From positions 96,001 through 160,000 of the IMG/VR virus record IMGVR_UViG_3300045988_082442: a DNA stretch of 64,000 bases. One strand, written 5' to 3'. Source of the DNA: a virus. Numbering within the stretch: position 1 is the first letter of the stretch; each line of letters starts with the position of its first letter. Positions 3,580 through 49,673 of this stretch are shown piece by piece. Position numbers and translations under genes: made by a program. Under the pieces are notes generated by a model, which saw nothing but the letters and a program-made list of their open reading frames with translations, was not told where the DNA came from and did not search any database.

Positions 3580-3629
3580 AAGGATAATTTTACAATCCTT
3601 GCAGGAAACTGCAAACTGTGTAATTTGAT
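3580..3629 (+). ncRNA. CRISPR leader module L1 (two-hairpin element)
   Basis: AAGGAT-aattttaca-ATCCTT then GCAG-gaaa-CTGC then AAACTGTGTAATTTGAT, abutting the first repeat; 7 copies in the window with compensatory changes. Confidence 0.7.
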
Positions 3630-3797
3630 GTTTTATAGCTATGTAAAATGACACAGATGTGAAAGAATCCAACCCAATATAAAGTAGAACAAGGCGTTTT
3701 ATAGCTATGTAAAATGACACAGATGTGAAAGTTCTTTCTAATTTTAATGTCCTTATCATTAGTTTTATAGCTATGTAAAATGACACAGATGTGAAAG
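3630..3797 (+). CRISPR. mini-array 1: 3 repeats, 2 internal spacers of 30 nt
   Basis: Three identical copies of GTTTTATAGCTATGTAAAATGACACAGATGTGAAAG at 3630-3665, 3696-3731 and 3762-3797; spacers AATCCAACCCAATATAAAGTAGAACAAGGC and TTCTTTCTAATTTTAATGTCCTTATCATTA. Confidence 0.9.
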
Positions 3798-3929
3798 ATT
3801 ATGATATGGGAACTATAATGTGGTGTAGTAAGTATAAGGAAGGTCAAGAAGAATTATGCAACAAAGAATGCAGAAAGAGATGGTCTTATGAGTTAAATAT
3901 TTGTAGACCAGATAAGGAGGAATTAGAAA

Positions 3930-4178
3930 ATGGAAAATAGAACAAGTGGTTATGTAAATACAGTATCTAATTACGGTTGGGTTTGTCCAATATGTGGTAG
4001 CGTTTATAGTCCTACAACAGTAGAGTGCTACAAATGTAATAAAAGTATGACATCAAGCAGTACAACCATCGATTGGACTGGACCATCAAAGATTACAACA
4101 ATAAATCAGGATGAGATAGCTAGATATAATAATGATGGTACAAAGCATAAGAGAAGTTTAATAAAAGGGGGAAACTAG
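3930..4178 (+). CDS. small zinc-ribbon protein
   Basis: CPICG...CYKC; RBS AAGGAGG upstream. Confidence 0.55.
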   Translation: MENRTSGYVNTVSNYGWVCPICGSVYSPTTVECYKCNKSMTSSSTTIDWTGPSKITTINQDEIARYNNDGTKHKRSLIKGGN

Positions 4179-4179
4179 A

Positions 4180-4767
4180 ATGAAATCTGGTTCAAATAAT
4201 AAATCTAATATGAGAAGTAATATAAAGTTAGGTTTAATAAGTTTAGGTATAATTTTAGGTGTTATACTATTATTTGCCTGTATATTTGCAGGGACTAACA
4301 ACACAGTAATCAGTCTTGAAGAACAAATAAGTGAGAGTAAATCTAGTATAGGAATACAAGAAAAGAGAAGAGCAGATTTAATATGTAATTTAGTTGACAC
4401 TGTTGAAAGTTATAATAAGCATGAACACAACACTTTAGTAGATGTTGTTGAAGCAAGAAGTAAAGCAAATAATGGTGATTTGGCAGAAGCACAGGTTATT
4501 ATAACAGCATTAGCAGAACAGTACCCAGAATTAAAATCTAATGAAAACTATAAATCATTAATGACTGAGTTATCTGTAACAGAAAACTTAATAGCAGAAT
4601 ATAGAAATAATTATAATACACAGGTAAGACAATATAATAAATATGTAAAAGGATTTCCAAGTAGAATGATTTTAAATATTATGGGTTATGAAAAGATAGA
4701 TGCCACATATTTAGAATATGATGGATATGAAGATGCACCTAAAAATTTATTTAAAAATGAGGATTAG
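4180..4767 (+). CDS. lemA: LemA-family membrane protein
   Basis: N-terminal TM, then the LemA-typical core EEQISESKSSIGIQEKRRADLICNLVDTVESYNKHEHNTLVDVVEARS...YPELKSNENY...EYRNNYN. Confidence 0.8.
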   Translation: MKSGSNNKSNMRSNIKLGLISLGIILGVILLFACIFAGTNNTVISLEEQISESKSSIGIQEKRRADLICNLVDTVESYNKHEHNTLVDVVEARSKANNGDLAEAQVIITALAEQYPELKSNENYKSLMTELSVTENLIAEYRNNYNTQVRQYNKYVKGFPSRMILNIMGYEKIDATYLEYDGYEDAPKNLFKNED

Positions 4768-4770
4768 ACA

Positions 4771-5526
4771 ATGGATAATATTGTAGTTACTAAAAGGGAA
4801 ATCTTAATTACAATTATAATATCTTGTATTTTAATTGGAATAGGGATTTTAATATCTAGTTCAATTAAAAGTAATGTATATGAAGATAATGAGTGTTATT
4901 ATAAGTCATTAAAAATAGATAATGATGAAAATATGTATCAGTATGCACTAAGAACAAATGTTGGATATACATTAGTATCAGGTAAGATAAAAGCTGTAAA
5001 CCCTGTAAGTTCTGAAAGAATAGACGGTCAGTACTATTATATTAGGGAAGAAAAAGAAAGATATACAGAACATTCAAGAAGAGTATCTCATACAAAAACA
5101 GTTCCAGATGGTAAGGGTGGTGTAAAAACAGAAACATATTATACCACAGAATACTACTGGACATGGGATAATATAGACACTAATACATATCACACAGATA
5201 TGTTTAACTTTTTAGGTACTAATTATAATTATGATAAGATAAGGTTTAGTAAAGAAGTATATAAAGATACAGTAAAAGAAAGTTCTAAAATAAGGTATGT
5301 ATATTATGTAACACCAATAGAATTTGATGTAACTTTATTTACATTTATAACAGATAATGATATAACAGATGTACATGTATATTACTCAAAGATACCAGAA
5401 ATTATAGAAAATAAGCAGAAAGCAGGGACAGGTGCAGTAGCAGGTTTTTGGATTGCTTGGGTATTCATTATAGCACTTATAGATTTTGTATATGTAAGTT
5501 TAGAAAATAAATATTTGGAGGGGTAA
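4771..5526 (+). CDS. membrane protein (N- and C-terminal TM)
   Basis: TM segments ILITIIISCILIGIGILISS and AVAGFWIAWVFIIALIDFVYV; starts 4 nt after the lemA stop. Confidence 0.55.
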   Translation: MDNIVVTKREILITIIISCILIGIGILISSSIKSNVYEDNECYYKSLKIDNDENMYQYALRTNVGYTLVSGKIKAVNPVSSERIDGQYYYIREEKERYTEHSRRVSHTKTVPDGKGGVKTETYYTTEYYWTWDNIDTNTYHTDMFNFLGTNYNYDKIRFSKEVYKDTVKESSKIRYVYYVTPIEFDVTLFTFITDNDITDVHVYYSKIPEIIENKQKAGTGAVAGFWIAWVFIIALIDFVYVSLENKYLEG

Positions 5527-5529
5527 ACA

Positions 5530-6048
5530 TTGAGTACAACATATTATATGAGATTAAAAGATAATGGTAAGTTAGACAAAGTAAGATACCTAATATCTAT
5601 CACAGAAAGAATGATAAATTCTATATTAGAAACACAAGCAAGAGAATTGCATAATATAATACAGATAGATTTAGAGGAAGTATTGAATAAAGATGATTTT
5701 AATAAACAATTCTGTAATGCAGCAGATTGGTATGCTAGTTATCCAGATGAACCAGAAGATTATCATTTAAAAAAGGTATTTATGGAAGATATACCTAGTA
5801 TAGAGGTTAATATAGGTACAAATACAGGTAGTGGATTTCATTGGCATTTAAGTAGCTTAAAAGATGGTTATTATGATACAGAAGAAGTGGATACAGGATT
5901 CTGGAAAGATAAGAAATGTTTTAATATGCCAAGAAGTAAAGAACAGTTAGTTTCATTTATGAATACCTATAAAGATAAGGTAGAAATAGTAGATGAATAC
6001 GGAGAAGTATATACAGTAAAACAATTCTTAAAAAAGGTAAATGAGTGA
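5530..6048 (+). CDS. hypothetical protein
   Basis: 172-aa ORF with TTG start after GGAGGGG. Confidence 0.5.
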   Translation: MSTTYYMRLKDNGKLDKVRYLISITERMINSILETQARELHNIIQIDLEEVLNKDDFNKQFCNAADWYASYPDEPEDYHLKKVFMEDIPSIEVNIGTNTGSGFHWHLSSLKDGYYDTEEVDTGFWKDKKCFNMPRSKEQLVSFMNTYKDKVEIVDEYGEVYTVKQFLKKVNE

Positions 6049-6077
6049 TAAATTATCACTCATTTTTAAATCCTTTT

Positions 6078-6092
6078 GTAAAATATTAATGA
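6078..6092 (+). promoter_or_regulatory. class-2 (late-type) motif GTAAAATATTAATGA
   Basis: Exact 15-mer; 9 copies in the window, always intergenic. Confidence 0.55.
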
Positions 6093-6120
6093 AGAGAAAA
6101 AAAATTATATAATTTTTAAG

Positions 6121-6157
6121 AAAAATGCTTGACAGAATTTAAAACTTATAGTAGACT
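6121..6157 (+). promoter_or_regulatory. class-1 conserved phage promoter copy
   Basis: AAAAATGCTTGACAGAATTTAAAACTTATAG then TAGACT. Confidence 0.7.
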
Positions 6158-6801: not shown

Positions 6802-6812
6802 AGGAGGATATT

Positions 6813-28941: not shown

Positions 28942-28978
28942 AAAAATGCTTGACATAATTTAAAACTTATAATATACT
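28942..28978 (+). promoter_or_regulatory. class-1 conserved phage promoter copy driving CRISPR array 2
   Basis: AAAAATGCTTGACATAATTTAAAACTTATAA then TATACT; no ORF between it and the leader/array. Confidence 0.7.
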
Positions 28979-29008
28979 TATATAAGTTAAAGAATTTATA
29001 ATAAATAT

Positions 29009-29058
29009 AGAGGTAATTTTACAACCTCTGCAGAAAACTGCGAACTGTGTATTTTGAT
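29009..29058 (+). ncRNA. CRISPR leader module L2
   Basis: AGAGGT-aattttaca-ACCTCT, GCAG-aaaa-CTGC, GAACTGTGTATTTTGAT. Confidence 0.7.
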
Positions 29059-29160
29059 GTTTTATAGCTATATAGAATGGCACAGGTGTAAAAGTATACC
29101 ATTTTGGGCTTTCCAAATCTTCCTGTTTTATAGCTATATAGAATGGCACAGGTGTAAAAG
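29059..29160 (+). CRISPR. mini-array 2: 2 repeats, 1 internal 30-nt spacer (plus a degenerate repeat remnant near 29191-29220)
   Basis: GTTTTATAGCTATATAGAATGGCACAGGTGTAAAAG at 29059-29094 and 29125-29160; spacer TATACCATTTTGGGCTTTCCAAATCTTCCT; downstream ...ACATAGAATGGAATAG resembles the repeat core. Confidence 0.85.
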
Positions 29161-29215
29161 AAATTAGTTTCATGAGTTGTAGATATTTGGAATAAAACAT
29201 AGAATGGAATAGATT

Positions 29216-30041: not shown

Positions 30042-30048
30042 TAAATAT

Positions 30049-30099
30049 AAGGGTAGTTTTACAATCCTTGCAAGAAATTGTGAACTGTGATATTTTGAT
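30049..30099 (+). ncRNA. CRISPR leader module L3
   Basis: AAGGGT-agttttaca-ATCCTT, GCAA-gaaa-TTGT, GAACTGTGATATTTTGAT. Confidence 0.7.
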
Positions 30100-30325
30100 G
30101 TTTTATAGCTATATAAAATGACACAGATGTGAAAGACACAATTGTTTAAATCTTTTAAAATTTGATGTTTTAGAGCTGTATAAAATAACACAGGTGTGAA
30201 AGGAACGATGTAACTTCTAACAATGAAAAGAGGTTTTAGAGCTGTATAAAATAACACAGGTGTGAAAGGCATTAGTTACTGTGTGTTTTGTTTTAGAGCT
30301 GTATAAAATAACACAAGCGTGAAAG
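30100..30325 (+). CRISPR. mini-array 3: 4 repeats of two subtypes; spacers 31, 30 and 21 nt (degenerate terminal repeat near 30353-30388)
   Basis: R1 GTTTTATAGCTATATAAAATGACACAGATGTGAAAG (30100); R2-R3 GTTTTAGAGCTGTATAAAATAACACAGGTGTGAAAG (30167, 30233); R4 differs only in its tail, ...ACACAAGCGTGAAAG (30290). Confidence 0.85.
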
Positions 30326-30390
30326 TATTTTGAAGATAGTGATGATGTTTTTTGTTTTATAAATATACAAAATATAATAAAATAATTTAA

Positions 30391-32003: not shown

Positions 32004-32073
32004 AAATGTTCAGTAAGATGTTAATAAGAATGTAAGTAAGTTTTCTGGTATCTTGATAAAAACCAGAATATAT

Positions 32074-32146
32074 CTCCTTATGGTGTAATAGGCAAACACG
32101 CTACTGAGTGGTGGTAGAATTATAGGTTCGAGCCCTGTTGGGGAGG
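32074..32146 (+). ncRNA. tRNA-like element A (non-canonical anticodon loop, no encoded CCA)
   Basis: Acceptor CTCCTTA/TGGGGAG, D arm GTGT/ACAC, T arm ATAGG-TTCGAGC-CCTGT are good; anticodon stem CTACT/GGTAG closes the loop GAGTGGT, which lacks U33. Confidence 0.5.
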
Positions 32147-32180
32147 ATAAATTCTATATATAGAATAATGTGTTACGCAG

Positions 32181-32266
32181 TATCTGTATTATAAGGTGAC
32201 AAGTACACAGGACGCTGTGGAGGGTTTCAATTCCTGGTAGTTGATTAGGTCTACAAAATACAGATA
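32181..32266 (+). ncRNA. unassigned structured element B (10-bp closing stem)
   Basis: TATCTGTATT (32181-90) pairs with AATACAGATA (32257-66); internal hairpins CACAG-gacg-CTGTG and GTAG...CTAC; not foldable by eye as a tRNA. Confidence 0.35.
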
Positions 32267-32272
32267 TAATAT

Positions 32273-32344
32273 CAGGTGGTAGTTGATAGGAAAACACTTC
32301 TACTAATGTATGAAGAGATGCTGGTTCGAATCCAGCCCTCCTGA
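32273..32344 (+). ncRNA. tRNA-like element C (acceptor/T-arm minihelix intact, D and anticodon arms degenerate)
   Basis: Acceptor CAGGTGG/CCTCCTG (one U-U), T arm GCTGG-TTCGAAT-CCAGC; no convincing 5-bp anticodon stem or 7-nt loop. Confidence 0.45.
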
Positions 32345-32357
32345 CCTTTTCAAAAAT

Positions 32358-32443
32358 GCAAGTATATCTCAACGGCAGAGCAGCCTCCAGTTGGGGGTGA
32401 AAAGTAGCATACGATTGTGTAGGTTCGAATCCTACTACTTGCA
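32358..32443 (+). ncRNA. tRNA-like element D (long variable region, non-canonical anticodon arm, no CCA)
   Basis: Perfect acceptor GCAAGTA/TACTTGC, T arm GTAGG-TTCGAAT-CCTAC, D arm CTC-aacggca-GAG; the central region does not give a standard anticodon arm. Confidence 0.5.
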
Positions 32444-32446
32444 ACC

Positions 32447-32489
32447 TAAAAATGACACAGATGTAAAAGAATATATTCATAGGTTATAT
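32447..32489 (+). CRISPR. solitary crRNA-like unit: repeat 3' handle (23 nt) plus a 20-nt guide, flanked by tRNA-like D and tRNA-Trp
   Basis: TAAAAATGACACAGATGTAAAAG (32447-32469) matches the 3' part of the array repeats; followed by AATATATTCATAGGTTATAT, ending one base before tRNA-Trp position 1. Confidence 0.65.
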
Positions 32490-32564
32490 AGGAGCTTGGT
32501 GTCAATGGTAGCACGACAGTCTCCAAAACTGTGAGTGAGAGTTCAAATCTTTCAGCTCCTGCCA
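32490..32564 (+). tRNA. tRNA-Trp (anticodon CCA), CCA encoded
   Basis: Acceptor AGGAGCT/AGCTCCT, D arm GTGT/GCAC, anticodon arm ACAGT-CTCCAAA-ACTGT, T arm GAGAG-TTCAAAT-CTTTC, G73, CCA. Confidence 0.85.
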
Positions 32565-32778
32565 ACATATCAATAATTCTAAATAAAATAAAAATAATCA
32601 GATTGGGTTTGGTACACCTGTAAGTTTGGGTATAGATATGGTCCTAAAAGGTCAGTCTTGATTATGCACAGAGATGTGCTGGCGAACGGTGAATTATTGA
32701 TATAAACAGATTGGATTATAACCTCTATAAGTTCAAGATAGAATGGGCTTGAAATACAATCTGTCAGTAATTTAATAT

Positions 32779-32864
32779 GGGTAGTTGGGTGAGTGGCTAA
32801 AACCATCAGACTGTAAATCTGACCTCATTTGAGTTCCCTAGTTCGAATCTAGGACTACCCACCA
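32779..32864 (+). tRNA. tRNA-Tyr (anticodon GTA), long variable arm, CCA encoded
   Basis: Acceptor GGGTAGT/ACTACCC, anticodon arm TCAGA-CTGTAAA-TCTGA, variable arm CCTCATTTGAGTTC, T arm CCTAG-TTCGAAT-CTAGG, A73, CCA. Confidence 0.85.
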
Positions 32865-32868
32865 GTAA

Positions 32869-32918
32869 AAGGGCAATTTTACAGCCCTTGCAGGAAACTG
32901 TGAACTGTGTATTCTGAT
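32869..32918 (+). ncRNA. CRISPR leader module L4
   Basis: AAGGGC-aattttaca-GCCCTT, GCAG-gaaa-CTGT, GAACTGTGTATTCTGAT; begins 5 nt after the tRNA-Tyr CCA. Confidence 0.7.
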
Positions 32919-32919
32919 A

Positions 32920-33144
32920 TTTTTATAGCTATATGAAATAATACAGGTGTAAAAGTGTTCTAACTGTTTTAGAGTATAATCGTTTGTTTTACAGATATAT
33001 GAAATAACACAGGTGTAAAAGCTAGACTGTAAATCTGGTCTCATTTGAGTTACTTTGTAGTTATATGAAATAGCACAGATGTAAAATTGGATAATATGTT
33101 CTGAATTGTTTTATAGCTATACAGAAATGACATGGATGTAAGAG
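32920..33144 (+). CRISPR. mini-array 4: 4 diverged repeats; spacers 30, 30 and 20 nt; directly upstream of the effector gene
   Basis: R1 TTTTTATAGCTATATGAAATAATACAGGTGTAAAAG (32920), R2 GTTTTACAGATATATGAAATAACACAGGTGTAAAAG (32986), R3 ACTTTGTAGTTATATGAAATAGCACAGATGTAAAAT (33052), R4 GTTTTATAGCTATACAGAAATGACATGGATGTAAGAG (33108). Confidence 0.8.
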
Positions 33145-33201: not shown

Positions 33202-35007
33202 ATGAAAAGAAAAGAGTTAAACGAAGGAGTTCACTGTGTAGAATATGCTTTAATGCACATACCAGATGAATATAAGGAATTGTTAGAAAGACAATATAAT
33301 TATATGGAAGATTTCAAGAATGGCTTTATTAGTTATATGTGGAGATATATTTCAAAGCAACGAAAGGAAAACGAAGAATTTGATAAAGCCATGGCTGAAG
33401 TTAGATACTTAAATACAAAGGAAGGAAGAATTATAAAGAAGGATGAACGCTCTAATAGACTAAGTAAAGCATATACAACAATAGGTAATTTTGTAAAAGA
33501 AACAAAGTTATTAGATTCTGGAAGTAGACGAAAAGAATACTACAGTACAGTAAAAAATGTTTATTATGCTTGGATACCAGATGATAGTAGGTCTTATGCA
33601 ATAGATGATGTTTTATCAGCATTTGAAGTATTCTTCTTTGATAGGGGTAAAGCAGTATTCCAAAAGAAATATGGTCATACAAAAATATTACAATTTAAAC
33701 CAGCATACAGTAGAATGAAGAGTACTGGTGAAATCAATACAATAGTACAAACACCTAGCAGAGTTGTATTTGAAAATGGAAATCCTTATTTTGAAATGTG
33801 GGATTTAAGAGATTTAAAAGATATACCAGAAGAAGAATGTCAAAAAGGTAAAAGACATAGTAAGATAAGATTTAGAATGTATTGTAATGATAAAGATGAG
33901 TTACAAAGTTATATAAAAACAAACCCATACATAGGTGGAACTAAGTTATTAAGATACTGGAAGAAGGGAAAATGGAGATATAGAGTTCAATTAAACTTTG
34001 AAGCAATATCACCAGCAGTAAAACAAATGAGCAACGAAGAGCATATAATGGGAATAGACTTAGGTACAGAAACAATAGCTTGGGTAAGAGATGATGGAGA
34101 ACAAGCAATATGGGAGTTATCACCAGATACACCAAGGGTAACAGAAGAAATAAAGGAAATAGATGTATATTTAGATAATTCAAGAAGGGCTATGAATCCA
34201 GAATTATTTAGGGAAGATGGTACTAGAATAAGTAATAGGGAAGCTAGGGAATTAGGATTAGAAGAAAAGCATTCAAAAAGATATATAAAAGCAGCAGCAA
34301 GAAGAAAAGAATGTTTTAGATATTTAGGAGAAAAAAGAAAACTAAATAACAGAATCCTAGCTAAAAAGTTATTTGAATTAGGTAATGAGTTTCATATAGA
34401 AAATAATAAGGTTTCATCTTGGATGTTAAAAAGATGTCACATGGCTCTTAAAACAGCAATGAAATATGCTTCTGGAGCAAGAGCAAGTGATTATGGGAAA
34501 GTTGTAGCAGATAGAGCCCCAGGAATGATAGATGCAAGATTATCTCAATTAGCAGGACAAAAAGGACTTTCATACCATAAAATTGAGAAGATAGAAGGTT
34601 TTAAATGCACAGAATATAATCATTTTACGGATAAGAATGATTTATTCCAATATCTAAATGACAGAATTGTAGTATTAGATGTTGACAGTGTAAATGATGT
34701 CTATAAAGAGTTTATTACTGATTTTGGTGATACAATTACTGATTTAAAAATAGACGGAAAAGACATAATACTACAAAGAGATTTATATGCAGCAGCAAAA
34801 TTAGTTTATTGCACACCATATAAAGAAACTATTGTGAATAGTAAAGGTAGAAAGGTAGAAGTAACAAGATATAAATTTGATAGAGAAGGGTTTAGCAAAT
34901 TCTTTGTTGAGAAATTTTATCCAAAACATTTAGAGTATATAATGAATCTAAGGGCTGAGTTAGCTAATGGTAAGAAGCTAAGTGGTACTGTATTTGGTAA
35001 TATTTAA
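33202..35007 (+). CDS. compact TnpB/Cas12-like RuvC nuclease (putative type V-like single effector, 601 aa)
   Basis: RuvC-I HIMGIDLGTETIAW (D286), RuvC-II GNEFHIENNKVSSWM (E400), RuvC-III DIILQRDLYAAAKL (D527); TnpB-like order of basic helices between motifs; no CxxC zinc finger in the lid/Nuc region; flanked by array 4 and a solo leader. Confidence 0.75.
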   Translation: MKRKELNEGVHCVEYALMHIPDEYKELLERQYNYMEDFKNGFISYMWRYISKQRKENEEFDKAMAEVRYLNTKEGRIIKKDERSNRLSKAYTTIGNFVKETKLLDSGSRRKEYYSTVKNVYYAWIPDDSRSYAIDDVLSAFEVFFFDRGKAVFQKKYGHTKILQFKPAYSRMKSTGEINTIVQTPSRVVFENGNPYFEMWDLRDLKDIPEEECQKGKRHSKIRFRMYCNDKDELQSYIKTNPYIGGTKLLRYWKKGKWRYRVQLNFEAISPAVKQMSNEEHIMGIDLGTETIAWVRDDGEQAIWELSPDTPRVTEEIKEIDVYLDNSRRAMNPELFREDGTRISNREARELGLEEKHSKRYIKAAARRKECFRYLGEKRKLNNRILAKKLFELGNEFHIENNKVSSWMLKRCHMALKTAMKYASGARASDYGKVVADRAPGMIDARLSQLAGQKGLSYHKIEKIEGFKCTEYNHFTDKNDLFQYLNDRIVVLDVDSVNDVYKEFITDFGDTITDLKIDGKDIILQRDLYAAAKLVYCTPYKETIVNSKGRKVEVTRYKFDREGFSKFFVEKFYPKHLEYIMNLRAELANGKKLSGTVFGNI

Positions 35008-35017
35008 TATAAATTAT

Positions 35018-35089
35018 AGGGTAATTTTACAGCCCTTGCAGGAAACTGCAAATAAAATATCATTTTAAAGCTCTATGATATTGTAAAAG
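35018..35089 (+). ncRNA. solo leader module L5 plus truncated degenerate repeat
   Basis: AGGGT-aattttaca-GCCCT, GCAG-gaaa-CTGC, then ATTTTAAAGCTCTATGATATTGTAAAAG (35062-35089), which resembles the repeat ends. Confidence 0.6.
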
Positions 35090-35124
35090 AAACTGATTTA
35101 AAAATCAGTTTGTATATTCTTTTT
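35090..35124 (+). terminator. intrinsic terminator
   Basis: AAACTGATTT-aa-AAATCAGTTT followed by GTATATTCTTTTT. Confidence 0.65.
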
Positions 35125-35156
35125 ATATTTTTTGAATATTTTTTCATTTTAATTTC

Positions 35157-42432: not shown

Positions 42433-42494
42433 TGTGAATACATCTAACAGTACATATTTGTTAGATGTATATTTTATATATAGGAGGATTTAAT

Positions 42495-43289
42495 ATGGGA
42501 ATAGATTATAAAACAATAAGTCATGAATTACCAGACAATTTATTATGGCTGGAAGATAGAACAATATTACTAACAAAGGCAGGTTCATACATATATGGGA
42601 CAAACATAGAAACATCAGATACAGACTATAAAGGTGTTTGTATCCCACCAAAAGAATATTATTTAGGTTTAAAATCAATAAATGAATATAATAAATCTGG
42701 TGGTAAAAACTTTGGTGAAAGAAATACCAAAGATGATATAGATATAGTTGTATGTCATATAAATAAGTTTGTAAGAGATGCTATGAATGGTATTCCAAAT
42801 AATTTAGATATACTATTTTGTAGAGATGAGGATGTAATTTATATGGATGATTTTGGTAAGGAGTTAAGAGATTTTAGACATGAGTTCTTATCAAAAGAAG
42901 TATTCAAAAAGTTCTCAGGTTACGCTTTATCACAAAAACATAAAATAGAGACTAAAAAGAATCATGGAACTGGAAGAAGAGAATTAGTAGAAGAATTTGG
43001 GTATGACTGTAAATTTGCTTATCATGCTGTAAGACTAATATTAGGTGCAACAGAAATATTAGAAACACATGATTATCATTCATATAGACCAGAAAGGGAA
43101 TGGTTAGTAGAAATAAGAAAAGGTAAATATACACTAGAAGAAATATTTGATATAATAGAAGATTTAGATGCAAAACTAAAAAGTGCTTATGAAACAAGTA
43201 CATTAAGAGAAAAACCAGATTATCATAAAATAAATAAATGGCTAATAGGTTTAAATGAAAGAGCATTGAATTATGACTTTAAAAGGTAG
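42495..43289 (+). CDS. RlaP-like nucleotidyltransferase (PF10127-type)
   Basis: ATG 42495 after AGGAGG; KAGSYIYGTNIETSDTDYKGVCIPP... Confidence 0.6.
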   Translation: MGIDYKTISHELPDNLLWLEDRTILLTKAGSYIYGTNIETSDTDYKGVCIPPKEYYLGLKSINEYNKSGGKNFGERNTKDDIDIVVCHINKFVRDAMNGIPNNLDILFCRDEDVIYMDDFGKELRDFRHEFLSKEVFKKFSGYALSQKHKIETKKNHGTGRRELVEEFGYDCKFAYHAVRLILGATEILETHDYHSYRPEREWLVEIRKGKYTLEEIFDIIEDLDAKLKSAYETSTLREKPDYHKINKWLIGLNERALNYDFKR

Positions 43290-43380
43290 TCAGCTGCCGT
43301 CAGGATTCCCTAGAAATGATTTTAAATGTTTAGACATAAAATTATAAGGTTGTAAATAAAATAGTCTTAAATATTGTTCA

Positions 43381-43417
43381 AAAAATGCTTGACAAAACTT
43401 AAAACTTATAGTATATT
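43381..43417 (+). promoter_or_regulatory. class-1 conserved phage promoter copy
   Basis: AAAAATGCTTGACAAAACTTAAAACTTATAG then TATATT. Confidence 0.7.
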
Positions 43418-43445
43418 TATAGAAACGAAGGGAGATGGGTTTTAA

Positions 43446-44213
43446 ATGGGAAATTCAAGAATAAAAACATTAAGTGATAGAATGAAAGATTATGAGTTAG
43501 CATCTGATTACAGACTAACAAAGAAAACACCTGTAATAGTGAGAATAGATGGTAAATCATTTCACACCTTTACAAAAGGATTAGATAAACCTTTTGATAG
43601 TATATTATCAGAAGCAATGAACTATGTTTGTAGAAAATTAGTAGAAACAGTACAGGGCTGTAAGTTTGCATATACACAATCAGATGAGATAAGTTTATTA
43701 TTAACAGATTGGGATAAATCAACAACAGATTGTTATTTTGATTATAGGGTACAGAAAATGGTATCAGTATTAGCTTCAGCAGCAACTATGTATTTTAATC
43801 AGTATATAGTATCAAGAGTTTTATACTGGCAAAAAGGAGAGTCAGAATTATCAGAAAAGTTATTTGATAAATGGGCTGCAAAAGCTGGTTGTGCAATGTT
43901 TGATGCAAGAGCATATAATTTGCCAAAAGAAGAAGTATGTAATTACTTTATATGGAGACAAGAAGATGCAAGCAGAAATTCTATACAGTCATTAGGCAGA
44001 AGTAGATTTTCATTTAAGCAAATGTTAAATAAAAAGAACAATGAAGTACAAGATATGCTGTTTAATGAATATGGTATAAATTGGAATCGTATAGATACTA
44101 AATGGAAAAGAGGATTTGCAGTATGTAGAGATAAAGATGGTATAAAATCAGACTTTGAGATACCATTATTTAAAAAAGATAGAGCATTTATAGACAAATA
44201 TCTTATAGTATAA
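43446..44213 (+). CDS. Thg1-like protein (tRNA-His guanylyltransferase family, 3'-5' nucleotidyltransferase)
   Basis: VIVRIDGKSFHTFTKG, AYTQSDEISLLL, and the later FDARAYNLP...NYFIWRQEDASRNS typical of Thg1/TLP. Confidence 0.8.
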   Translation: MGNSRIKTLSDRMKDYELASDYRLTKKTPVIVRIDGKSFHTFTKGLDKPFDSILSEAMNYVCRKLVETVQGCKFAYTQSDEISLLLTDWDKSTTDCYFDYRVQKMVSVLASAATMYFNQYIVSRVLYWQKGESELSEKLFDKWAAKAGCAMFDARAYNLPKEEVCNYFIWRQEDASRNSIQSLGRSRFSFKQMLNKKNNEVQDMLFNEYGINWNRIDTKWKRGFAVCRDKDGIKSDFEIPLFKKDRAFIDKYLIV

Positions 44214-44242
44214 GATGTTTATAATGATGAAAGGATATAAAA

Positions 44243-44392
44243 ATGTTTATATGTGATAAATGTAGAACTTGTAGTAAGTTTCCATTTTGCACAGTAACAG
44301 AGAGTAAAGATGGAAATTGTGGTGAATATTCCAAAAGAAATATTTACAAGTTTATAGAAGATAAATTAAAAGATATTGAGAATAAGAGGTAG
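44243..44392 (+). CDS. small Cys-rich protein (below the ORF-track cutoff)
   Basis: Hand-translated MFICDKCRTCSKFPFCTVTESKDGNCGEYSKRN..., 49 aa. Confidence 0.4.
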   Translation: MFICDKCRTCSKFPFCTVTESKDGNCGEYSKRNIYKFIEDKLKDIENKR

Positions 44393-44395
44393 AAC

Positions 44396-45013
44396 ATGCT
44401 TGAATTAGAGTTATATGGACGTTGTTATAAAAAGAATAACAATATAAAAATAAATAAAGGTATTACAGTTTTAACTGGACCAAATGGGTGTGGTAAATCT
44501 TATGCTTGTCAGCAAATAAGAGATTACCTAAAAGAAAATAATAAGAAAGTATATTTTGTAGATGTATATTCAGAGGGTAAAACTATATCACAACAATATT
44601 TAGAATATGGAGATATGGAATCATTAGCAAAGCATACAGTAGCATCAGAAGGTCAAAGAGTATTTGATACACTTATAGATAATCATGCATCAAAATTAGG
44701 GGAATTTGTTAGACAACTAATAGATAATAACCTAAAAGAAGGATATATAATTATAGATGGTGCTGATAGTGGTGTTAGTATTGATTTAATGATGTCATTG
44801 AGAAGTTTATTTAGTATGATAGAAGAGGATTGTGTAGACAGTGGAATAGATATATACATAATTATAACTTCAAATAGTTTTGAATTATGTAGAAATTACG
44901 ACTGTATCTGGATACCTACAATGGAACATTATAAAAGAGGAGATGAAGCAGATGCCTATGATTTGTGGAGACACCAATATGAAAAAATCTACAAAGAAAG
45001 AAACAAGAAATAA
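44396..45013 (+). CDS. P-loop ATPase
   Basis: Walker A GPNGCGKS, Walker B-like YIIIDGADSG. Confidence 0.6.
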   Translation: MLELELYGRCYKKNNNIKINKGITVLTGPNGCGKSYACQQIRDYLKENNKKVYFVDVYSEGKTISQQYLEYGDMESLAKHTVASEGQRVFDTLIDNHASKLGEFVRQLIDNNLKEGYIIIDGADSGVSIDLMMSLRSLFSMIEEDCVDSGIDIYIIITSNSFELCRNYDCIWIPTMEHYKRGDEADAYDLWRHQYEKIYKERNKK

Positions 45014-45269
45014 GATTGTAGAAGAATATAAAAGAATATACAGTAGAAAGTATAGAAGAGCTCATTATAAGAGTAAATGGGTATTACAATCTGGTAATCA
45101 ACTAGCAGAAGAAGATTTTAAATCTTGGTGTCAAGAATCAAAAGTTATAATGAGAAAGCATAAAGTTGGATTAATTACTGATGATGATATGTTGGGGTAT
45201 ATAAATAAATGGATAGAACAAGATGTTAAGATAAAAGAAGAAATAGATATACTTGCTTTGAGCAAGTAA
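44979..45269 (+). CDS. basic hypothetical protein
   Basis: Probable start ATG 44979 (MKKSTKKETRNK); the track start at 44880 would overlap the upstream gene by 134 nt. Confidence 0.45.
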   Translation: MKKSTKKETRNKIVEEYKRIYSRKYRRAHYKSKWVLQSGNQLAEEDFKSWCQESKVIMRKHKVGLITDDDMLGYINKWIEQDVKIKEEIDILALSK

Positions 45270-45276
45270 TAGATAT

Positions 45277-45309
45277 AAGGGTAATTTTATAACCCTTGCA
45301 GGAAACTGC
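45277..45309 (+). ncRNA. solo leader module L6 (no intact repeat follows)
   Basis: AAGGGT-aattttata-ACCCTT, GCAG-gaaa-CTGC; then GAACTATTTTTAATAGATATAAAAGC, only a faint repeat remnant. Confidence 0.6.
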
Positions 45310-45390
45310 GAACTATTTTTAATAGATATAAAAGCTTTTTTCGATACCCCAATTTATAAGATAAATAAAACAGAATAGAGGTAGGAAGTT

Positions 45391-47859
45391 ATGAGAAATT
45401 TAGTAGTATTAAGAGGATGCCCAGGTGCAGGGAAATCAACTTGGATAAAAGAAAATGGTTTAGAGCCTTATACATTATGTCCAGATACAATAAGGACAAT
45501 GGTAAGTGCTCCAGTATATACAGAAGAACATGATACTGAGATGACTATATCTCAGCAAAATGAAACTTATACATGGAATTTATTATTTGAATTACTTGAA
45601 AATAGAATGAAGAATGGTGATTTTACAGTAATAGATGCAACACATAGCAGGTCATCAGATTTTAGTAGATATAACGATTTATGTTCTACATATAGATATA
45701 GAAGATATACTGTATCATTTACAGATGTACCAGAAGAAGTATGTAAACAAAGAAATCTGGAAAGAGATGCCTATAAACAGGTACCACCTGAAGTTATAGA
45801 AAAGATGTATGCTAGATTTGCAACACAAAATAAAACAAGTGGATGGACAGAAATTCCAAGAGATAAATTCTGGGAAGTATTTAGTAATAAAGTGTTTGAT
45901 TTTAATAAGTATGAAAAAGTTCATATATTTGGTGATATTCATGGATGTTATGACCCACTAGAACAATATATAGTAGATAGCTATAATGGAGATGATGTAC
46001 ATGAAGATTTAAGCCCAGAAACATTAAAGAATTTATTAAATAAAGATGAGGCTTATATATTTGTAGGTGATTACTTAGATAGAGGATTACAAAATAAAGA
46101 AGTTTTAAAATTTATGATTTCAATATGTCAATTAGATAATGTTTTATGCTTAGAGGGAAATCACGAAAGATATTTATGGTATTGGGCTAATGAACAAGAT
46201 AATGAAATAAGAAGTAAAGAGTTCTTTAATCATACAGTACCACAAATAAGAGGTATATCTCCATCTGATATAAGACAATTTTATAGAAAATTAGGACAAA
46301 TGGCATTATTTACATTTAATAATGAAACATATTTTGTAACACATGGTGGATTATCATTATTACCAGAACACTTACCATTAGTATCAACAAATTGTCTAAT
46401 AAATGGTACAGGAAGATTTAAGTTTCCAATAGATGAAAGATATACAGAAAATATGCAAGGTAAAAATGTATTACAAGTACATGGTCATAGAAATATGGAA
46501 TGTGATTATAAAGGAAAACTACCTTTATCATTCTCACTAGAAGATAGAGTTGAGTTTGGTGGTAATTTTGTAGTATTAGAAATAAATGAGAAAGGTAATT
46601 ACTTCCATAGAATAAAGAATGATACATTTAGGGAACCTGATTATGACAATAAAGAAGAAGAAATAATACCAGCATTTGATATGACAATGGACAATATTGT
46701 AGAAAGAATGAGATTGAATAAGAACATAAAAGAAACAGTGCTACCAGATGGTATATCATCTTTTAACTTTACTAGACAAGCATTTGAAAAAGATAGATGG
46801 AACTCAGAAACAGTTAAAGCAAGGGGATTATTTATAGATACTGAAAACAATAAAATAGTTGCAAGAGGATATGAGAAGTTCTTTAATATAAATGAACAAG
46901 AAAACTGTAAATTATTTAATCTAAAATCATTATTTAATACAGGATTACCTGTAATTGCATATAAGAAGTATAATGGATTTTTAGGAATATTAAGTTATTA
47001 TCATGATGAGTTAAAATTCCATTCAAAATCTACTAATATAGGTGATTATGCAAACTACTTTAAAGACCTATTTTATAAAAGATTTACTGACAAACAAATA
47101 GATATGATTACAGATTATTTAAAGAATAATAATGTATCAATGGTATTTGAAGTTATAGACATAGACAATGACCCACATATCATAGAAGAAAAAGAAAGCA
47201 GAGTAGTTTTATTAGATATAATCAGAAATGAAGTAGAGTTTAGCAGATTACCTTATGACCAGTTATTACTTTTAGCAAACTTATGGGGAATAAAAGAAGA
47301 TGGTGTAAAACAAATATATAAAGAATTTACATCATACAGAGAGTTGACTGAGTTCTATGAAATACATAAAGATGATAAAAACTTTAATGATATTGATATA
47401 GAAGGAGTTGTAATAGAATGTGGTAACTTTATGACAAAGCTTAAATTTAATTATTATAGATTCTGGAAGGGTATGAGAAGTGTTGCAGAAAAATTACAAA
47501 GTGGAAGAGATAATGTAAAATTAAGTATGTTATACAATGCAACTGCAAACTATTTCTATAAGTTTGTAAAAGATATGGTAGAAGAAAAACAGTTAGAACT
47601 TCTAAAAATAAAAGATACATTAGGATTGGGAGATATAAATGCTGGTGATTTAAGAAGAGCAGAATTAGACTTTGAAAATAATATGATTACAATTCATAAA
47701 AGAGATAGAAGAGCTTATTATATAGGAAATGATATTACAGCAGAAAATGTTATTACAGCAACAACAACCCCAGAAATAATGAACAAACTATCAGAACTAC
47801 AAAAATCAAAGGATATAATAACATTAAGAAACGAATATTATAGAAATGGTGGTGTTTAA
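45391..47859 (+). CDS. Pnkp-like RNA repair enzyme (polynucleotide kinase, metallophosphatase, RNA ligase)
   Basis: Walker A GCPGAGKST; GDIHGC, GDYLDRG, GNHE, HGH; ligase motif I AYKKYNGFLG; the same domain order as bacterial Pnkp. Confidence 0.75.
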   Translation: MRNLVVLRGCPGAGKSTWIKENGLEPYTLCPDTIRTMVSAPVYTEEHDTEMTISQQNETYTWNLLFELLENRMKNGDFTVIDATHSRSSDFSRYNDLCSTYRYRRYTVSFTDVPEEVCKQRNLERDAYKQVPPEVIEKMYARFATQNKTSGWTEIPRDKFWEVFSNKVFDFNKYEKVHIFGDIHGCYDPLEQYIVDSYNGDDVHEDLSPETLKNLLNKDEAYIFVGDYLDRGLQNKEVLKFMISICQLDNVLCLEGNHERYLWYWANEQDNEIRSKEFFNHTVPQIRGISPSDIRQFYRKLGQMALFTFNNETYFVTHGGLSLLPEHLPLVSTNCLINGTGRFKFPIDERYTENMQGKNVLQVHGHRNMECDYKGKLPLSFSLEDRVEFGGNFVVLEINEKGNYFHRIKNDTFREPDYDNKEEEIIPAFDMTMDNIVERMRLNKNIKETVLPDGISSFNFTRQAFEKDRWNSETVKARGLFIDTENNKIVARGYEKFFNINEQENCKLFNLKSLFNTGLPVIAYKKYNGFLGILSYYHDELKFHSKSTNIGDYANYFKDLFYKRFTDKQIDMITDYLKNNNVSMVFEVIDIDNDPHIIEEKESRVVLLDIIRNEVEFSRLPYDQLLLLANLWGIKEDGVKQIYKEFTSYRELTEFYEIHKDDKNFNDIDIEGVVIECGNFMTKLKFNYYRFWKGMRSVAEKLQSGRDNVKLSMLYNATANYFYKFVKDMVEEKQLELLKIKDTLGLGDINAGDLRRAELDFENNMITIHKRDRRAYYIGNDITAENVITATTTPEIMNKLSELQKSKDIITLRNEYYRNGGV

Positions 47860-47860
47860 T

Positions 47861-48076
47861 ATGGGGTTAATAGGATACTATATATCTAACCTATTGTGTA
47901 ATATACTTATACTAGCAATGGTTGTAGTGGTGTTGATTATTTCAATACCACTTGCAGTTATAATATCATTATGTGAGGTTGTAGGTACATTAGGTATATT
48001 CCTAAATAAGTTATTAGATAGCCTTATTCAGAAAACAGATAATTTAATAAAAGTATTAAAAACAAAGGAGAATTAG
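47861..48076 (+). CDS. small membrane protein
   Basis: ATG 47861; two hydrophobic segments. Confidence 0.5.
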   Translation: MGLIGYYISNLLCNILILAMVVVVLIISIPLAVIISLCEVVGTLGIFLNKLLDSLIQKTDNLIKVLKTKEN

Positions 48077-48078
48077 AA

Positions 48079-48258
48079 ATGGAAGATTGGTTAAATAGAA
48101 TTGTAAAATGTCCATGGTGTAAGCAAGATGTTAGAGATGGTGATAGAATTTGGTTAGATGGGGAATGCCTATGTCCAGAATGCTATCAGCATAAAAGACA
48201 GAAATATGATGACTTAAAAAGAAGTGGTTATGAACAAGCAAAGAAAGAATCAAGGTAA
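48079..48258 (+). CDS. small zinc-ribbon protein (below the ORF-track cutoff)
   Basis: Hand-translated MEDWLNRIVKCPWCKQ...CLCPECYQHK..., 59 aa; RBS AAGGAG. Confidence 0.5.
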   Translation: MEDWLNRIVKCPWCKQDVRDGDRIWLDGECLCPECYQHKRQKYDDLKRSGYEQAKKESR

Positions 48259-48275
48259 TACAGAGGAGTGATATT

Positions 48276-48815
48276 ATGTTTATAGGAAAAGAGTTAAGAA
48301 GTGTAAAAACTGGAAAACAAATATTAGTACCATTTTGTAATGAATGTAATTCACAGAATATAGAAACTATACAAGTATGTCGTAACTGTGGCTCGCATAA
48401 TATAAAGGTAGACTGGCAAGATGATAGAAGCATAAAAGATGAATATGAGGATAGATGTGCTTATATCTATAAATGTGATTCATGTGGGGAAGAATATGAT
48501 GGATTACAACATGCTAATGTTATATCTTATTCAACAGGTGAATTTATAAGTGGGGAATCTGAATATTCAGAAAAGAAATACAGCATGAAGAGAGATTTAT
48601 GTCCAAAGTGTACTAAAATGCTTATCAACACATTAAATGCTAGAATAGAAGAAATTATAGATGAGGATAATGTTATGAATATAGCAGATAATATCACAGA
48701 TAAAACAGAAACTAAAGAAAGTGAACAATGTCAAACCTGTGCAAAATATGAATATTGCACAATGAGAAAAGATAAAGAGTTCTGTTATGAATATGATAGA
48801 GAGGGTGATTTATAA
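48276..48815 (+). CDS. multi-zinc-ribbon protein
   Basis: CNECN...CRNCG, CDSCG, CPKC, CQTC. Confidence 0.5.
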   Translation: MFIGKELRSVKTGKQILVPFCNECNSQNIETIQVCRNCGSHNIKVDWQDDRSIKDEYEDRCAYIYKCDSCGEEYDGLQHANVISYSTGEFISGESEYSEKKYSMKRDLCPKCTKMLINTLNARIEEIIDEDNVMNIADNITDKTETKESEQCQTCAKYEYCTMRKDKEFCYEYDREGDL

Positions 48816-49186
48816 TGAGTTTTGCAGTAACTGGTTTGACACATTGTTCTAGTTGTGGAACACCATTAGGCATGAACGAATATGGATATTGTGCAAGTTG
48901 TCAGGAAAAGATAGATAAACAAAAAGAAAAGGATAAAAAACAACATGAGAAAGATATGTTTAAAGCAGAAATTTTAGGCGAGGTTAAAGAAGTTCTAAAC
49001 AAGAACATATTAGATGAATTAGCTAAAATGAGAGGTACTATAAATGAGATGAATATACCAACTAGAAAACCAGATGATATAGATTGGGATAGATGGTATG
49101 CAGATATTGGGCAACAGGTAGTATCAGAATCATTAAAAGGTAATAAATGTATCTTAGTAAATTTTATCAATAATAAAAATAAATAA
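48815..49186 (+). CDS. zinc-ribbon protein
   Basis: CSSCG...CASCQ. Confidence 0.5.
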   Translation: MSFAVTGLTHCSSCGTPLGMNEYGYCASCQEKIDKQKEKDKKQHEKDMFKAEILGEVKEVLNKNILDELAKMRGTINEMNIPTRKPDDIDWDRWYADIGQQVVSESLKGNKCILVNFINNKNK

Positions 49187-49193
49187 TAAATAT

Positions 49194-49243
49194 AAGGATA
49201 ATTTTACAATCCTTACAGGAAACTGTGAACTGTGTAATTTAAT
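49194..49243 (+). ncRNA. CRISPR leader module L7
   Basis: AAGGAT-aattttaca-ATCCTT, ACAG-gaaa-CTGT (compensatory relative to GCAG/CTGC), GAACTGTGTAATTTAAT. Confidence 0.7.
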
Positions 49244-49673
49244 ATCCTATAGCTATATAAAATGACACAGATGTGAAAGTATTGCAACATTAAAATACCC
49301 TATTTTTGGGGTTTTATGGCTATATAAAATAACACAGATGTGAAAGAGGGATTTTGTTTTGTTAGCATTTATTTCTGTTTTATAGCTATATAAAATGACA
49401 CAGATGTGAAAGTCTGGAACAAATCTTGAAAAGTCCAGCTTTGTTTTATGGCTATATAAAATAACACAGGTGTGAAATAATTCAAAGTATTGTTCAAATA
49501 GTTTCTGTGTTTTATAGTTATATAAAATGACACAGATGTGAAAGGAATACTAAAATAAAGTAGCAATTGAGCTAGTTCTATAGCTATATAAAATGACACA
49601 GATATGAAAGTTAAGCTCATGAATGATAGCAACAATAGTTTTATAGATATATAAGAAGCAGAAAGGAGAAAAT
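49244..49673 (+). CRISPR. mini-array 5: 6 good repeats plus a degenerate terminal repeat; spacers 31, 30, 30, 30, 30 and 27 nt
   Basis: Repeats at 49244, 49311, 49377, 49443, 49509, 49575 (for example GTTTTATAGCTATATAAAATGACACAGATGTGAAAG at 49377); terminal GTTTTATAGATATATAAGAAGCAGAAAGGAGAAAAT at 49638. Confidence 0.9.

Follow-up and report, generated by a model that had tools for sequence, protein, structure and literature searches.

We analysed a window of 64,000 nucleotides (nt) from a large AT-rich phage (IMG/VR record IMGVR_UViG_3300045988_082442, positions 96,001–160,000), in which a single 601-residue protein with the TnpB/Cas12 fold is accompanied by a dispersed set of guide-RNA genes. 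About 23 guide-RNA units are spread over 46 kb as short repeat-spacer arrays, ready-made single-guide RNAs (sgRNAs) and one guide flanked by tRNA genes, and every array opens with a structured leader that covaries with the repeat. We consider it likely that the phage carries a TnpB-derived, type V-like (Cas12/TranC-like) RNA-guided system with no adaptation genes in the window. We are highly confident of the anatomy and of its assignment to an RNA-guided system and moderately so of competition between phages as its function, and we hold the borrowing of type II-A adaptation that is discussed below with low to moderate confidence.

An earlier reading of the sequence, here called the original prediction, had proposed five dispersed leader-array cassettes, one candidate nuclease, a coupling of guides to tRNA genes, and no Cas1, Cas2 or Cas4. 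This outline is borne out. A repeat search recovered the five cassettes (Table 1), the 601-residue protein is the one candidate nuclease, and the tRNA coupling is real and recurs in two related loci (L001 and L008). Pfam scans, which covered 67 of the 68 plus-strand open reading frames (ORFs) of at least 60 residues in the window (ORF 44880–45269, first 44 residues possibly lost, lies outside this set), detected no Cas1, Cas2, Cas4, Cas9 or Csn2. Nor was a conventional cas operon found that would account for the repeats: the 3' half of the repeat has no match in 185,579 species-representative genomes (GTDB) or in IMG/VR, and the repeats covary with the phage's own leader.

The effector protein and its phage lineages

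The 601-residue protein retains an intact RuvC D-E-D triad (D286, E400 and D527). It passed no profile of a named type V subtype (V-A to V-N and the V-U families) in Pfam, NCBIfam, PADLOC or the PDB: there was no Pfam match and no PDB match by sequence or profile search, the NCBIfam guided_TnpB profile failed (17 bits against a cut-off of 100, E 0.0028), and the PADLOC scores for Cas12f (28 bits) and Cas12u3 (24 bits) were weak and sub-threshold. An AlphaFold model built from a 28-sequence alignment reached a predicted local distance difference test score (pLDDT) of 86.9 and a predicted template-modelling (pTM) score of 0.81; it replaced a first model from nine sequences, whose RuvC half was poor (pLDDT 64). 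Compared with the PDB by Foldseek, the model has the fold of a type V RuvC effector, with Cas12f, Cas12m and TnpB matches at E 1e-9 to 1e-7. The best matches, all at 10–12% identity, included AsCas12f (E 8e-10, target template-modelling (TM) score 0.61), ISDra2 TnpB (target TM 0.60), Cas12m2 (TM 0.5) and LaTranC (target TM 0.47), and also Cas12p and Fanzor2.

Among 5.8 billion proteins, only eight clusters are closely related to this one. When 1.84 billion cluster representatives were searched with a profile, 28 proteins scored below E 1e-30, of which about two dozen are full-length or fragmentary family members; the next tier consists of divergent TnpB-like proteins of about 500 residues that match only the RuvC half and score 41–87 bits with the guided_TnpB profile, under its cut-off. 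The family is confined to about 20 metagenomic phage lineages; one IMG/VR contig and a few metagenomic contigs, the longest of 195 kb, carry members. Neither the 185,579 GTDB genomes nor GenBank phages contain the family; among the latter, IS605 TnpBs of Clostridium phages match at about 32% identity over 230 residues of the RuvC half, and the DNA of the effector region has no match in GenBank phages.

The architecture travels with the protein. On every contig of sufficient length for a judgement, several arrays with a 66-nt period are dispersed among tRNA or transfer-messenger RNA (tmRNA) genes, a separate leader heading each of them, and the effector adjoins an array, as expected of a type V locus, in L001, L003, L007, L008, L009 and L011–L014. 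In the window an array lies directly 5' of the effector gene and a leader unit directly 3' of it. Locus L003 is syntenic with window positions 25–44 kb at 38–74% protein identity and has its arrays at matching positions, while L009 (32% protein identity) holds at least five such arrays, with a different repeat and a different leader that is conserved among its own arrays. In another locus, L010, a more distant effector relative (31% identity over the RuvC part) is flanked by a different repeat system (4076–6320 and 6759–7229), made of paired 34-nt repeats (GTTTGAGAGACTTGCAGAATCTCAAGGTTGTAAA) with a conserved leader of some 30 nt for every pair; this locus also contains a 157-nt tandem repeat in three copies.

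That the protein is an ordinary IS200/IS605-type TnpB, with the arrays as unrelated and functionless relics of a host CRISPR locus, is highly improbable. The weak guided_TnpB match, the Clostridium phage IS605 TnpBs as nearest GenBank phage matches and several degenerate repeats would fit such an origin. However, the profile score stays far below its cut-off, and Pfam scans of the other window ORFs found no TnpA-type transposase family. The gene is single-copy and syntenic in related phages, which is not the setting of an IS200/IS605 or IS607 transposon; the architecture is kept down to the 32% identity of L009; and the compensatory changes between leader and repeat described below indicate purifying selection on RNA pairing.

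Leader, repeat and guide formats

The 36-nt direct repeat (consensus GTTTTATAGCTATATAAAATGACACAGATGTGAAAG) occurs at five places in the window, in four to five subtypes. Its period of 66–67 nt leaves spacers of 30 nt as the rule; the 20–21-nt spacers emphasized by the original prediction are two exceptions, of 21 nt and 20 nt. A 15-nt motif at the 3' end of the repeat occurs 23 times in the window against 1.2 expected (0 of 100 shuffles reached 23), and 19 of these occurrences, all on the plus strand, lie inside arrays or the tRNA-flanked unit.

A conserved leader of about 52 nt heads each array; in it, two covarying hairpins are followed by a 10–11-nt anti-repeat that pairs with the centre of the repeat. 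The original prediction had treated this element as a plain leader and had described the cassettes as placed behind unrelated genes; the organizing principle is the structured, tracr-like leader itself, with its anti-repeat. The first hairpin (P1) reads AAGGGY-AATTTTAYA-RCCCTT and the second (P2), which has a GNRA loop, GCAG-GAAA-CTGC, followed by GAA. Seven leader copies are present in the window (at 3578, 29007, 30047, 32867, 35017, 45275 and 49192; each nhmmer E <1e-9), two of which (35017 and 45275) have no array. The window anti-repeat CTGTGTAATTT is complementary to the repeat centre AAATGACACAG, and the leader is conserved in L001, L003, L007, L008 and L011–L014, with pairs of anti-repeat and repeat centre such as TATGTAATTT and AAATTACATA in L001, TATGTAAAAT and ATTTTACATA in L003, TGTGTTAAAT and ATTTAACACA in L008, and TATGTTATTTT and AAAATAACATA in L013.

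Covariation was evaluated on an ungapped alignment of 19 distinct units from eight phage loci, leaving out the conserved but different leaders of L009. In this alignment, which was assembled by hand from ungapped segments of mutually related units, 90.8% of cells fall in standard pairs, compared with 36–49% after the 3' partners were slid by one to three columns; both sides have changed in 14 of 28 pairs, and none of 500 shuffles reached the observed values. By helix, pairing amounts to 98% in P1, 100% in P2, 86.5% between the 5' and 3' arms of the repeat, and 86% in the anti-repeat/repeat helix, where five compensatory pairs occur, as in the covarying anti-repeat of a trans-activating CRISPR RNA (tracrRNA) or scoutRNA. 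These compensatory changes point to purifying selection on the RNA pairing, and each cassette, as judged from the predicted pairing, carries its own tracr-like scaffold. With gathering as well as E-value thresholds, Rfam matched only tRNAs in the window, and none of its families covers the leader. The linker between anti-repeat and first repeat ranges from 3 to 31 nt among units, which argues against a requirement for pairing in cis; internal repeats imply action in trans, as does the tRNA-flanked CRISPR RNA (crRNA), which has no anti-repeat in cis. One leader of L001 (7820–7890) contains its anti-repeat in triplicate (ATGTAATTTT ATGTAATTTT ATGTAATTTGAG).

The two leader copies without arrays belong to compact units that are predicted to fold as three hairpins (P1, P2 and P3) and then a single-stranded handle. 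They look like natural counterparts of a Cas12 sgRNA or a TnpB omega-RNA, whose layout they share. TnpB genes encode their omega-RNA at a position 3' of the gene. The unit at 35017 begins 10 nt 3' of the effector stop codon and ends in a terminator-like hairpin and T-run after the handle; a leader copy follows the effector stop codon in seven of the seven relatives whose downstream sequence was read (L001, L003, L007 and L011–L014), and in L003, L007, L011, L013 and L014 the leader or scaffold starts 6–17 nt past it, at the omega-RNA position. The second unit lies upstream of the Pnkp/RNA-ligase gene, and its guide begins at 45335 (CTTTTTTCGATACCCCAATT...). Related sequences also occur on the other side of the effector gene. 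In L003 (9934–10000) and L014 (462–524) a degenerate leader, comprising P1 and P2 with no repeat, lies in the effector 5' untranslated region and abuts the start codon, possibly as an autoregulatory site; in the window, a degenerate repeat takes the place of this leader ahead of the effector start.

A third format is coupled to tRNA genes. The gap that separates a tRNA-like gene (3' end at 32446) from tRNA-Trp (5' end at 32490) is filled exactly by the 3' half of a repeat (23 nt, TAAAAATGACACAGATGTAAAAG) and a guide of 20 nt (AATATATTCATAGGTTATAT). With no anti-repeat in cis, this unit would require a leader acting in trans. In L008 a complete fused sgRNA-like unit (1722–1810) lies exactly between tRNA-Cys and tRNA-Phe, and two leaders of L001 begin within about 10 nt of tRNA 3' ends. 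The coupling is most simply read as a means by which RNase P and RNase Z would set the RNA ends. Guides placed exactly between tRNAs, which these enzymes would free with defined ends, recall the engineered polycistronic tRNA–guide RNA arrays reported by Xie and colleagues in 2015; the phage version is natural and combined with ordinary repeat-spacer arrays, and its processing would follow from the layout.

Several observations concern the tRNA cluster itself. Window positions 32273–32446 hold a tRNA-Ile with anticodon AAT and a tRNA-like gene with a long variable arm (Rfam tRNA, 38.7 bits), whose anticodon loop ARAGORN could not read and which forms the 5' flank of the tRNA-flanked guide. Between tRNA-Trp and tRNA-Tyr, a 214-nt non-coding stretch (32565–32778) has a predicted minimum free energy of -50.6 kcal/mol (z = -3.1, with 0 of 200 shuffles folding as well); it matches no Rfam family and is not a tmRNA according to ARAGORN. 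L007, L008 and L009 encode a tmRNA in the corresponding tRNA/array neighbourhood.

Table 1. Positions of the guide-RNA system and associated features in the 64,000-nt window
Feature	Position	Strand	Basis
Leader 1: hairpin P1, GNRA hairpin P2, GAA/AAA, anti-repeat CTGTGTAATTT, junction GAT	3578..3629	+	nhmmer E 8e-12; sequence; covariation
Array 1: 3 identical 36-nt repeats (3630-3797), two 30-nt spacers, terminal guide-like 30 nt	3630..3827	+	repeat search
Consensus extended promoter just 5' of leader 2, one of 11	28950..28978	+	repeat family D5
Cassette 2: leader 29007-29058, 2 repeats 29059-29160, terminal guide	29007..29190	+	nhmmer; repeat search
Cassette 3: leader 30047-30099, 4 repeats of two subtypes 30100-30325	30047..30355	+	sequence
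Cluster of tRNA genes: His, Ile (anticodon AAT), an unusual tRNA-like gene with a long arm, Trp, Tyr	32073..32864	+	ARAGORN; Rfam
tRNA-flanked crRNA-like unit: 23-nt repeat 3' half and 20-nt guide	32447..32489	+	sequence
Cassette 4: leader 3 nt after tRNA-Tyr, 3 repeats 32920-33087, degenerate fourth 33108-33143	32867..33143	+	sequence
TnpB/Cas12-fold effector gene, 601 residues, RuvC D286, E400, D527	33202..35007	+	ORF; family alignment; structure model
Compact single-guide-like unit: P1, P2, P3 (AATATCAT/ATGATATT mini anti-repeat/repeat duplex), handle GTAAAAG; scaffold 35017-35089	35017..35125	+	nhmmer; folding
tRNA/RNA-repair module: RlaP, Thg1, AAA ATPase, fused kinase-phosphatase-RNA ligase	42465..47859	+	Pfam scans; homologues
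Compact single-guide-like unit: P1, P2, GAA, P3 (CTATT-TTT-AATAG), handle ATATAAAAG; scaffold 45275-45334	45275..45365	+	nhmmer; folding
Cassette 5: leader 49192-49243, 6 repeats 49244-49610, terminal guide, degenerate seventh near 49641	49192..49669	+	nhmmer; sequence
Extended promoter copies	579-622, 6117-6160, 9038-9081, 23282-23325, 23669-23712, 28938-28981		repeat search
Extended promoter copies, continued	30387-30430, 35258-35301, 39614-39657, 43377-43420, 53288-53331		repeat search

Among known systems, TranC and the miniature type V effectors Cas12f, Cas12m and Cas12n share with the phage locus a compact TnpB-derived RuvC effector beside short arrays and no adaptation genes. In TranC a transposon right-end element RNA (reRNA) has been split into tracrRNA and crRNA (10.64898/2026.03.27.714800), and the phage scaffold can likewise be read as an omega-RNA or reRNA divided into a tracr-like part and a repeat. 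The phage protein nevertheless has no significant sequence match to solved Cas12, TnpB or TranC chains, and its structural match to LaTranC is distant. Unlike in those systems, the tracr-like element is the leader of every array and not a separate gene, the five arrays lie scattered across 46 kb, one genome encodes guides in both fused and split form, and guides are embedded in a tRNA cluster. The type V systems with a scoutRNA or tracrRNA (Cas12c, Cas12d and Cas12b/e/f) also use a short structured RNA with an anti-repeat, and their guide likewise stands 3' of a repeat-derived handle; their effectors, however, are unrelated in size and sequence, and those RNAs are single separate genes, whereas the phage element is fused in cis to each array and also forms complete single-guide units. 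Phage-borne type V systems (Cas-phi/Cas12j, Cas-lambda, Cas12r of Thermus Lalka phages and Cas12p) resemble ours in having compact effectors, no Cas1 or Cas2, and spacers against mobile elements, but they use crRNA only, from a single locus; small-RNA sequencing of Cas12r revealed no tracr or scout RNA (10.64898/2026.04.20.719267). The structural similarity of Cas-lambda to the 601-residue protein is weak (E ~1e-3). Cas12r was considered as the same system and rejected, being crRNA only and of thermophile origin.

Against this background, four traits appear to be new: a cis tracr-like scaffold as the leader of each dispersed array, fused and split guide formats within one genome, guides that would be freed by tRNA processing, and a leader-repeat junction like that of type II-A.

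Type II-A likeness, spacers and targets

The original prediction had noted that the repeat starts like those of type II-A, and the resemblance is strengthened by the leader junction and by the 36/30-nt geometry. The leader meets the first repeat as ATTTGAG/GTTT in L001 (five of five arrays) and L008, and as ATTTGAT/GTTT in the window. Of the 25 junctions scored, 6 carry the exact motif (background 1.5e-4) and 14, two of them in the window, have it within one mismatch, although the junctions are homologous to one another and these counts overstate their independence; a seventh exact junction, in L008, was mis-registered in the scoring. Group 1 type II-A loci, which have 36-nt repeats, conserve ATTTGAG/GTTT where the leader ends (PMC5382924), and Wei et al. 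(2015) are cited in that paper for the last 10 leader nt and the first repeat being enough for adaptation. The repeat 5' ends also follow type II-A subtypes, with GTTTTAGAGCT in the window and GTTTTAGTACT in L001 and L008. By its arrays, with ATTTGAG abutting GTTT, 36-nt repeats and 30-nt spacers, the system would pass for type II-A; by its genes and tracrRNA it would not, since the scanned ORFs include no cas9, cas1, cas2 or csn2, the repeat ends in G and not C, and its partner pairs with the repeat centre, whereas a type II-A tracrRNA pairs with the repeat 5' part.

Since junction, repeat length, spacer length and repeat 5' end all copy type II-A, we propose, tentatively and at somewhat less than even odds, that the arrays are substrates for host Cas1-Cas2-Csn2. 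Borrowing of host adaptation machinery has been proposed for phage-encoded type V systems (10.64898/2026.04.20.719267). If correct, this would suggest a route by which a phage gains spacers without its own Cas1-Cas2, by imitating the leader-repeat junction of its host.

The same likeness could have another meaning. The units might be decoys or hijackers of a host type II-A Cas9, in the style of Racr or viral sgRNAs, which would soak up tracrRNA and Cas9 or load phage-chosen guides, the 601-residue protein being incidental. Type II-A is common in Bacillota, and the best matches of the phage terminase, in large Listeria, Bacillus and Streptococcus phages, indicate a Bacillota host. Different phages carry different type II-A-like subtypes, the junction is shared, GTTTTAGTACT is the start of the SaCas9 scaffold (PMC5732962), and phage-encoded sgRNA mimics of Cas9 guides exist (10.64898/2026.06.01.729453). 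We nonetheless judge the idea quite unlikely. The likeness ends after 11–14 nt, with no Cas9-guide nexus, 3' hairpins or type II tracrRNA to follow, and the repeat covaries with a partner that belongs to the phage itself, the leader, which pairs with the repeat centre and not with the type II-A-like 5' end. The tRNA-flanked and compact units have the predicted guide 3' of the handle, in the orientation of type V, and decoys need no 30-nt spacers with turnover. Racr and viral sgRNAs are solitary units without a cognate effector; here the Cas12-like gene is present wherever the arrays are, and spacer content is diverse.

The spacers themselves bear on the function of an RNA-guided effector. As the original prediction had recognized, spacer 2 of cassette 4 (33022–33051, CTAGACTGTAAATCTGGTCTCATTTGAGTT) derives from a tRNA-Tyr gene. 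Of its 30 positions, 29 agree with the tRNA-Tyr gene of two IMG/VR phage contigs (of 175 kb and 83 kb), and 26 agree with the phage's own tRNA-Tyr gene, which differs at a compensating anticodon-stem pair. Within the 6–7 kb around each match, the contigs have a G+C content like that of the window (28–29%) and no protein similar to the window's, and the IMG/VR scan found no effector relative in either contig; they look like competitors on a similar host. Because the spacer has the same sense as the tRNA, its pairing partner would be DNA rather than the tRNA. No protospacer was found in GenBank phages for 21 window spacers and guide-like units or for about 60 spacers of related loci, and four exact-pattern scans of IMG/VR yielded none either, which leaves the tRNA-Tyr spacer as the sole one with a hit. 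In L001 (2770–2800) the last guide of one array (TAGCTCAGCAGGCAGA...) equals 16 nt of the D-arm region of a tRNA-Thr gene that begins about 30 nt downstream, a second tRNA-derived guide and here a self match.

Comparison between loci indicates how the spacers change. All spacers of L003 differ from those of the window except the trailer-end one 5' of the effector gene (TG[GA]ATAATATGTTCTGAATT; the last spacer of cassette 4, TGGATAATATGTTCTGAATT), which is the signature of leader-proximal acquisition. Spacer 49413 is common to the window and L013, with the first 23 nt identical, and the first spacer of cassette 3 ends in AAATTTGAT, a leader-end remnant, so that this cassette resembles two arrays fused. 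On these alignments, spacer turnover is real and polarized.

Guides of this kind could instead direct DNA binding without cleavage, so as to regulate phage or host genes in the manner of Cas12m or TldR-type TnpB repressors. About half of the effector family has Asn for the RuvC-I Asp together with Asp for the RuvC-II Glu, Cas12m2 is among the best structural matches, and the compact units occupy untranslated regions, 3' of the effector gene and 5' of the RNA-ligase gene. The trailer-end guide kept just 5' of the effector gene in the window and L003, and the L001 guide that matches the adjacent tRNA-Thr gene, would also suit a regulatory role. The substituted sub-branch (P0005, P0009 and P0012–P0019 in family alignment A3) may indeed be nuclease-dead and bind DNA only; one relative has His and Gly at these positions. 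For the window system we consider pure regulation unlikely. Its protein retains all three RuvC residues, and with the exception of the tRNA-Tyr spacer no guide matches elsewhere in the 64-kb window at up to three mismatches, the three special guides included. The tRNA-Tyr spacer fits foreign phages better than self, and syntenic relatives differ almost wholly in their spacers, unlike fixed regulatory guides. The locus of P0005, L011, holds three successive single-guide-like units and no regular array.

Other points weigh against the type V-like reading that we favour. The RuvC substitutions mean that cleavage is not universal in the family. A protospacer is at hand for just 1 of about 95 spacers, from which no protospacer- or target-adjacent motif can be derived, and, tRNA genes being conserved, the true match might lie in the tRNA-Tyr of the host. 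In the compact unit at 35017, what stands in the guide position is a terminator hairpin. Because the type II-A-like junction and the anti-repeat overlap, RNA function alone might explain why the junction is conserved, and the covariation rests on the hand-made alignment of related units described above.

In the RNA-guided system that we favour, the guide scaffold would consist of P1, the GNRA hairpin P2, the 10–11-nt anti-repeat on the repeat centre and the 3' handle ATGTGAAAG, with the guide at the 3' end. The split format would comprise a leader and a short array, the leader pairing with the first repeat possibly in cis and with the others necessarily in trans; the fused format would provide two natural single-guide, omega-RNA-like units, one of them at the omega-RNA position 3' of the effector; and the third would be a bare crRNA freed by RNase P and RNase Z. 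The 601-residue protein would bind these RNAs and then cut, or at least bind, matching DNA. Its targets would most likely be competing phages of the same host, reached for example through their tRNA-Tyr gene, and spacers would turn over by way of the host type II-A Cas1-Cas2-Csn2 machinery.

We offer as a possibility, though a doubtful one, that the system is a living intermediate of the split of omega-RNA into tracrRNA and crRNA and at the same time a chimera, in which arrays serving as type II-A substrates, with host-subtype-specific repeat 5' ends, are read out by a TnpB-derived effector through a cis tracr leader, with tRNA-matured guides and with fused and split formats together. If so, one genome would display side by side the proposed stages from TnpB to type V, namely a fused omega-like guide at the 3' end of the gene, a scaffold split into leader and repeats, and short arrays. 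It would also be a natural precedent for the sgRNAs of Cas12-type enzymes and for tRNA-flanked guide arrays, and would indicate phage tRNA genes as targets in phage–phage conflict. An effector of 601 residues with a scaffold of about 60 nt would be attractive for genome editing.

Transcription and genome context

Eleven near-identical extended promoters (AAAAATGCTTGACA-N17-TATAAT) split the window into transcription units. A generic sigma-70 scan did not rise above chance in this AT-rich DNA, and only the 11-copy family was therefore used. Cassette 2 lies about 30 nt 3' of one of these promoters, while cassettes 1, 3 and 5 lie inside operons or end them. One unit, running from 30399 to terminator-like sites near 35090–35250, holds the tRNA cluster and, after it, cassette 4, the effector gene and the compact unit at 35017. 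The cassettes are thus spread over at least four transcription units that share one promoter type, and the sequence gives no support to the several temporal classes of the original prediction. Within the promoter, AAAAATGCTTGACA(A/G)AATTTAAAACTTATAAT, conservation runs through the spacer between the hexamers, which suggests that it is read by something more specific than the host sigma factor alone.

The G+C content of the window is 27–33%, and its long ORFs are all on the plus strand. Pfam scans identified phage hallmarks, including a terminase with an intein, a holin, an amidase and an SNF2 helicase, and a pectate-lyase-like adhesin domain within one late ORF. They also identified the RNA-repair genes HAD_SAK_2, RlaP, Thg1 and a fused kinase-phosphatase-RNA ligase (Pnkp/RNA ligase). 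The integration of guides with an RNA-repair module, as originally claimed, stands as far as the presence of these genes and of homologues that accompany the guide system in L001, L003 and L008; the module is context, and not a demonstrated component of the guide system.

The terminase large-subunit gene (13848–17030) contains the intein (Intein_splicing, E 3.5e-22), and the closest phage terminases, of Listeria phage LIS04 and Bacillus phage HSE3, have inteins or endonucleases at the same place. The NAD-dependent DNA ligase (36744–39566) is split into two ORFs, 36744–37916 and 38679–39566, with a GIY-YIG/NUMOD3 homing-endonuclease ORF (37909–38679) between them; in L003 the ligase is a single gene of 670 residues. 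A 16-nt tandem repeat (ATATAGATGTTATAAT) occurs in three copies at 13306–13367, after an acidic ORF of 1418 residues, and a 137-nt stretch is duplicated at 3034/3185 (3034–3321). An 85-nt similarity between the distant coding regions 19994–20078 and 63498–63582 suggests paralogous genes.

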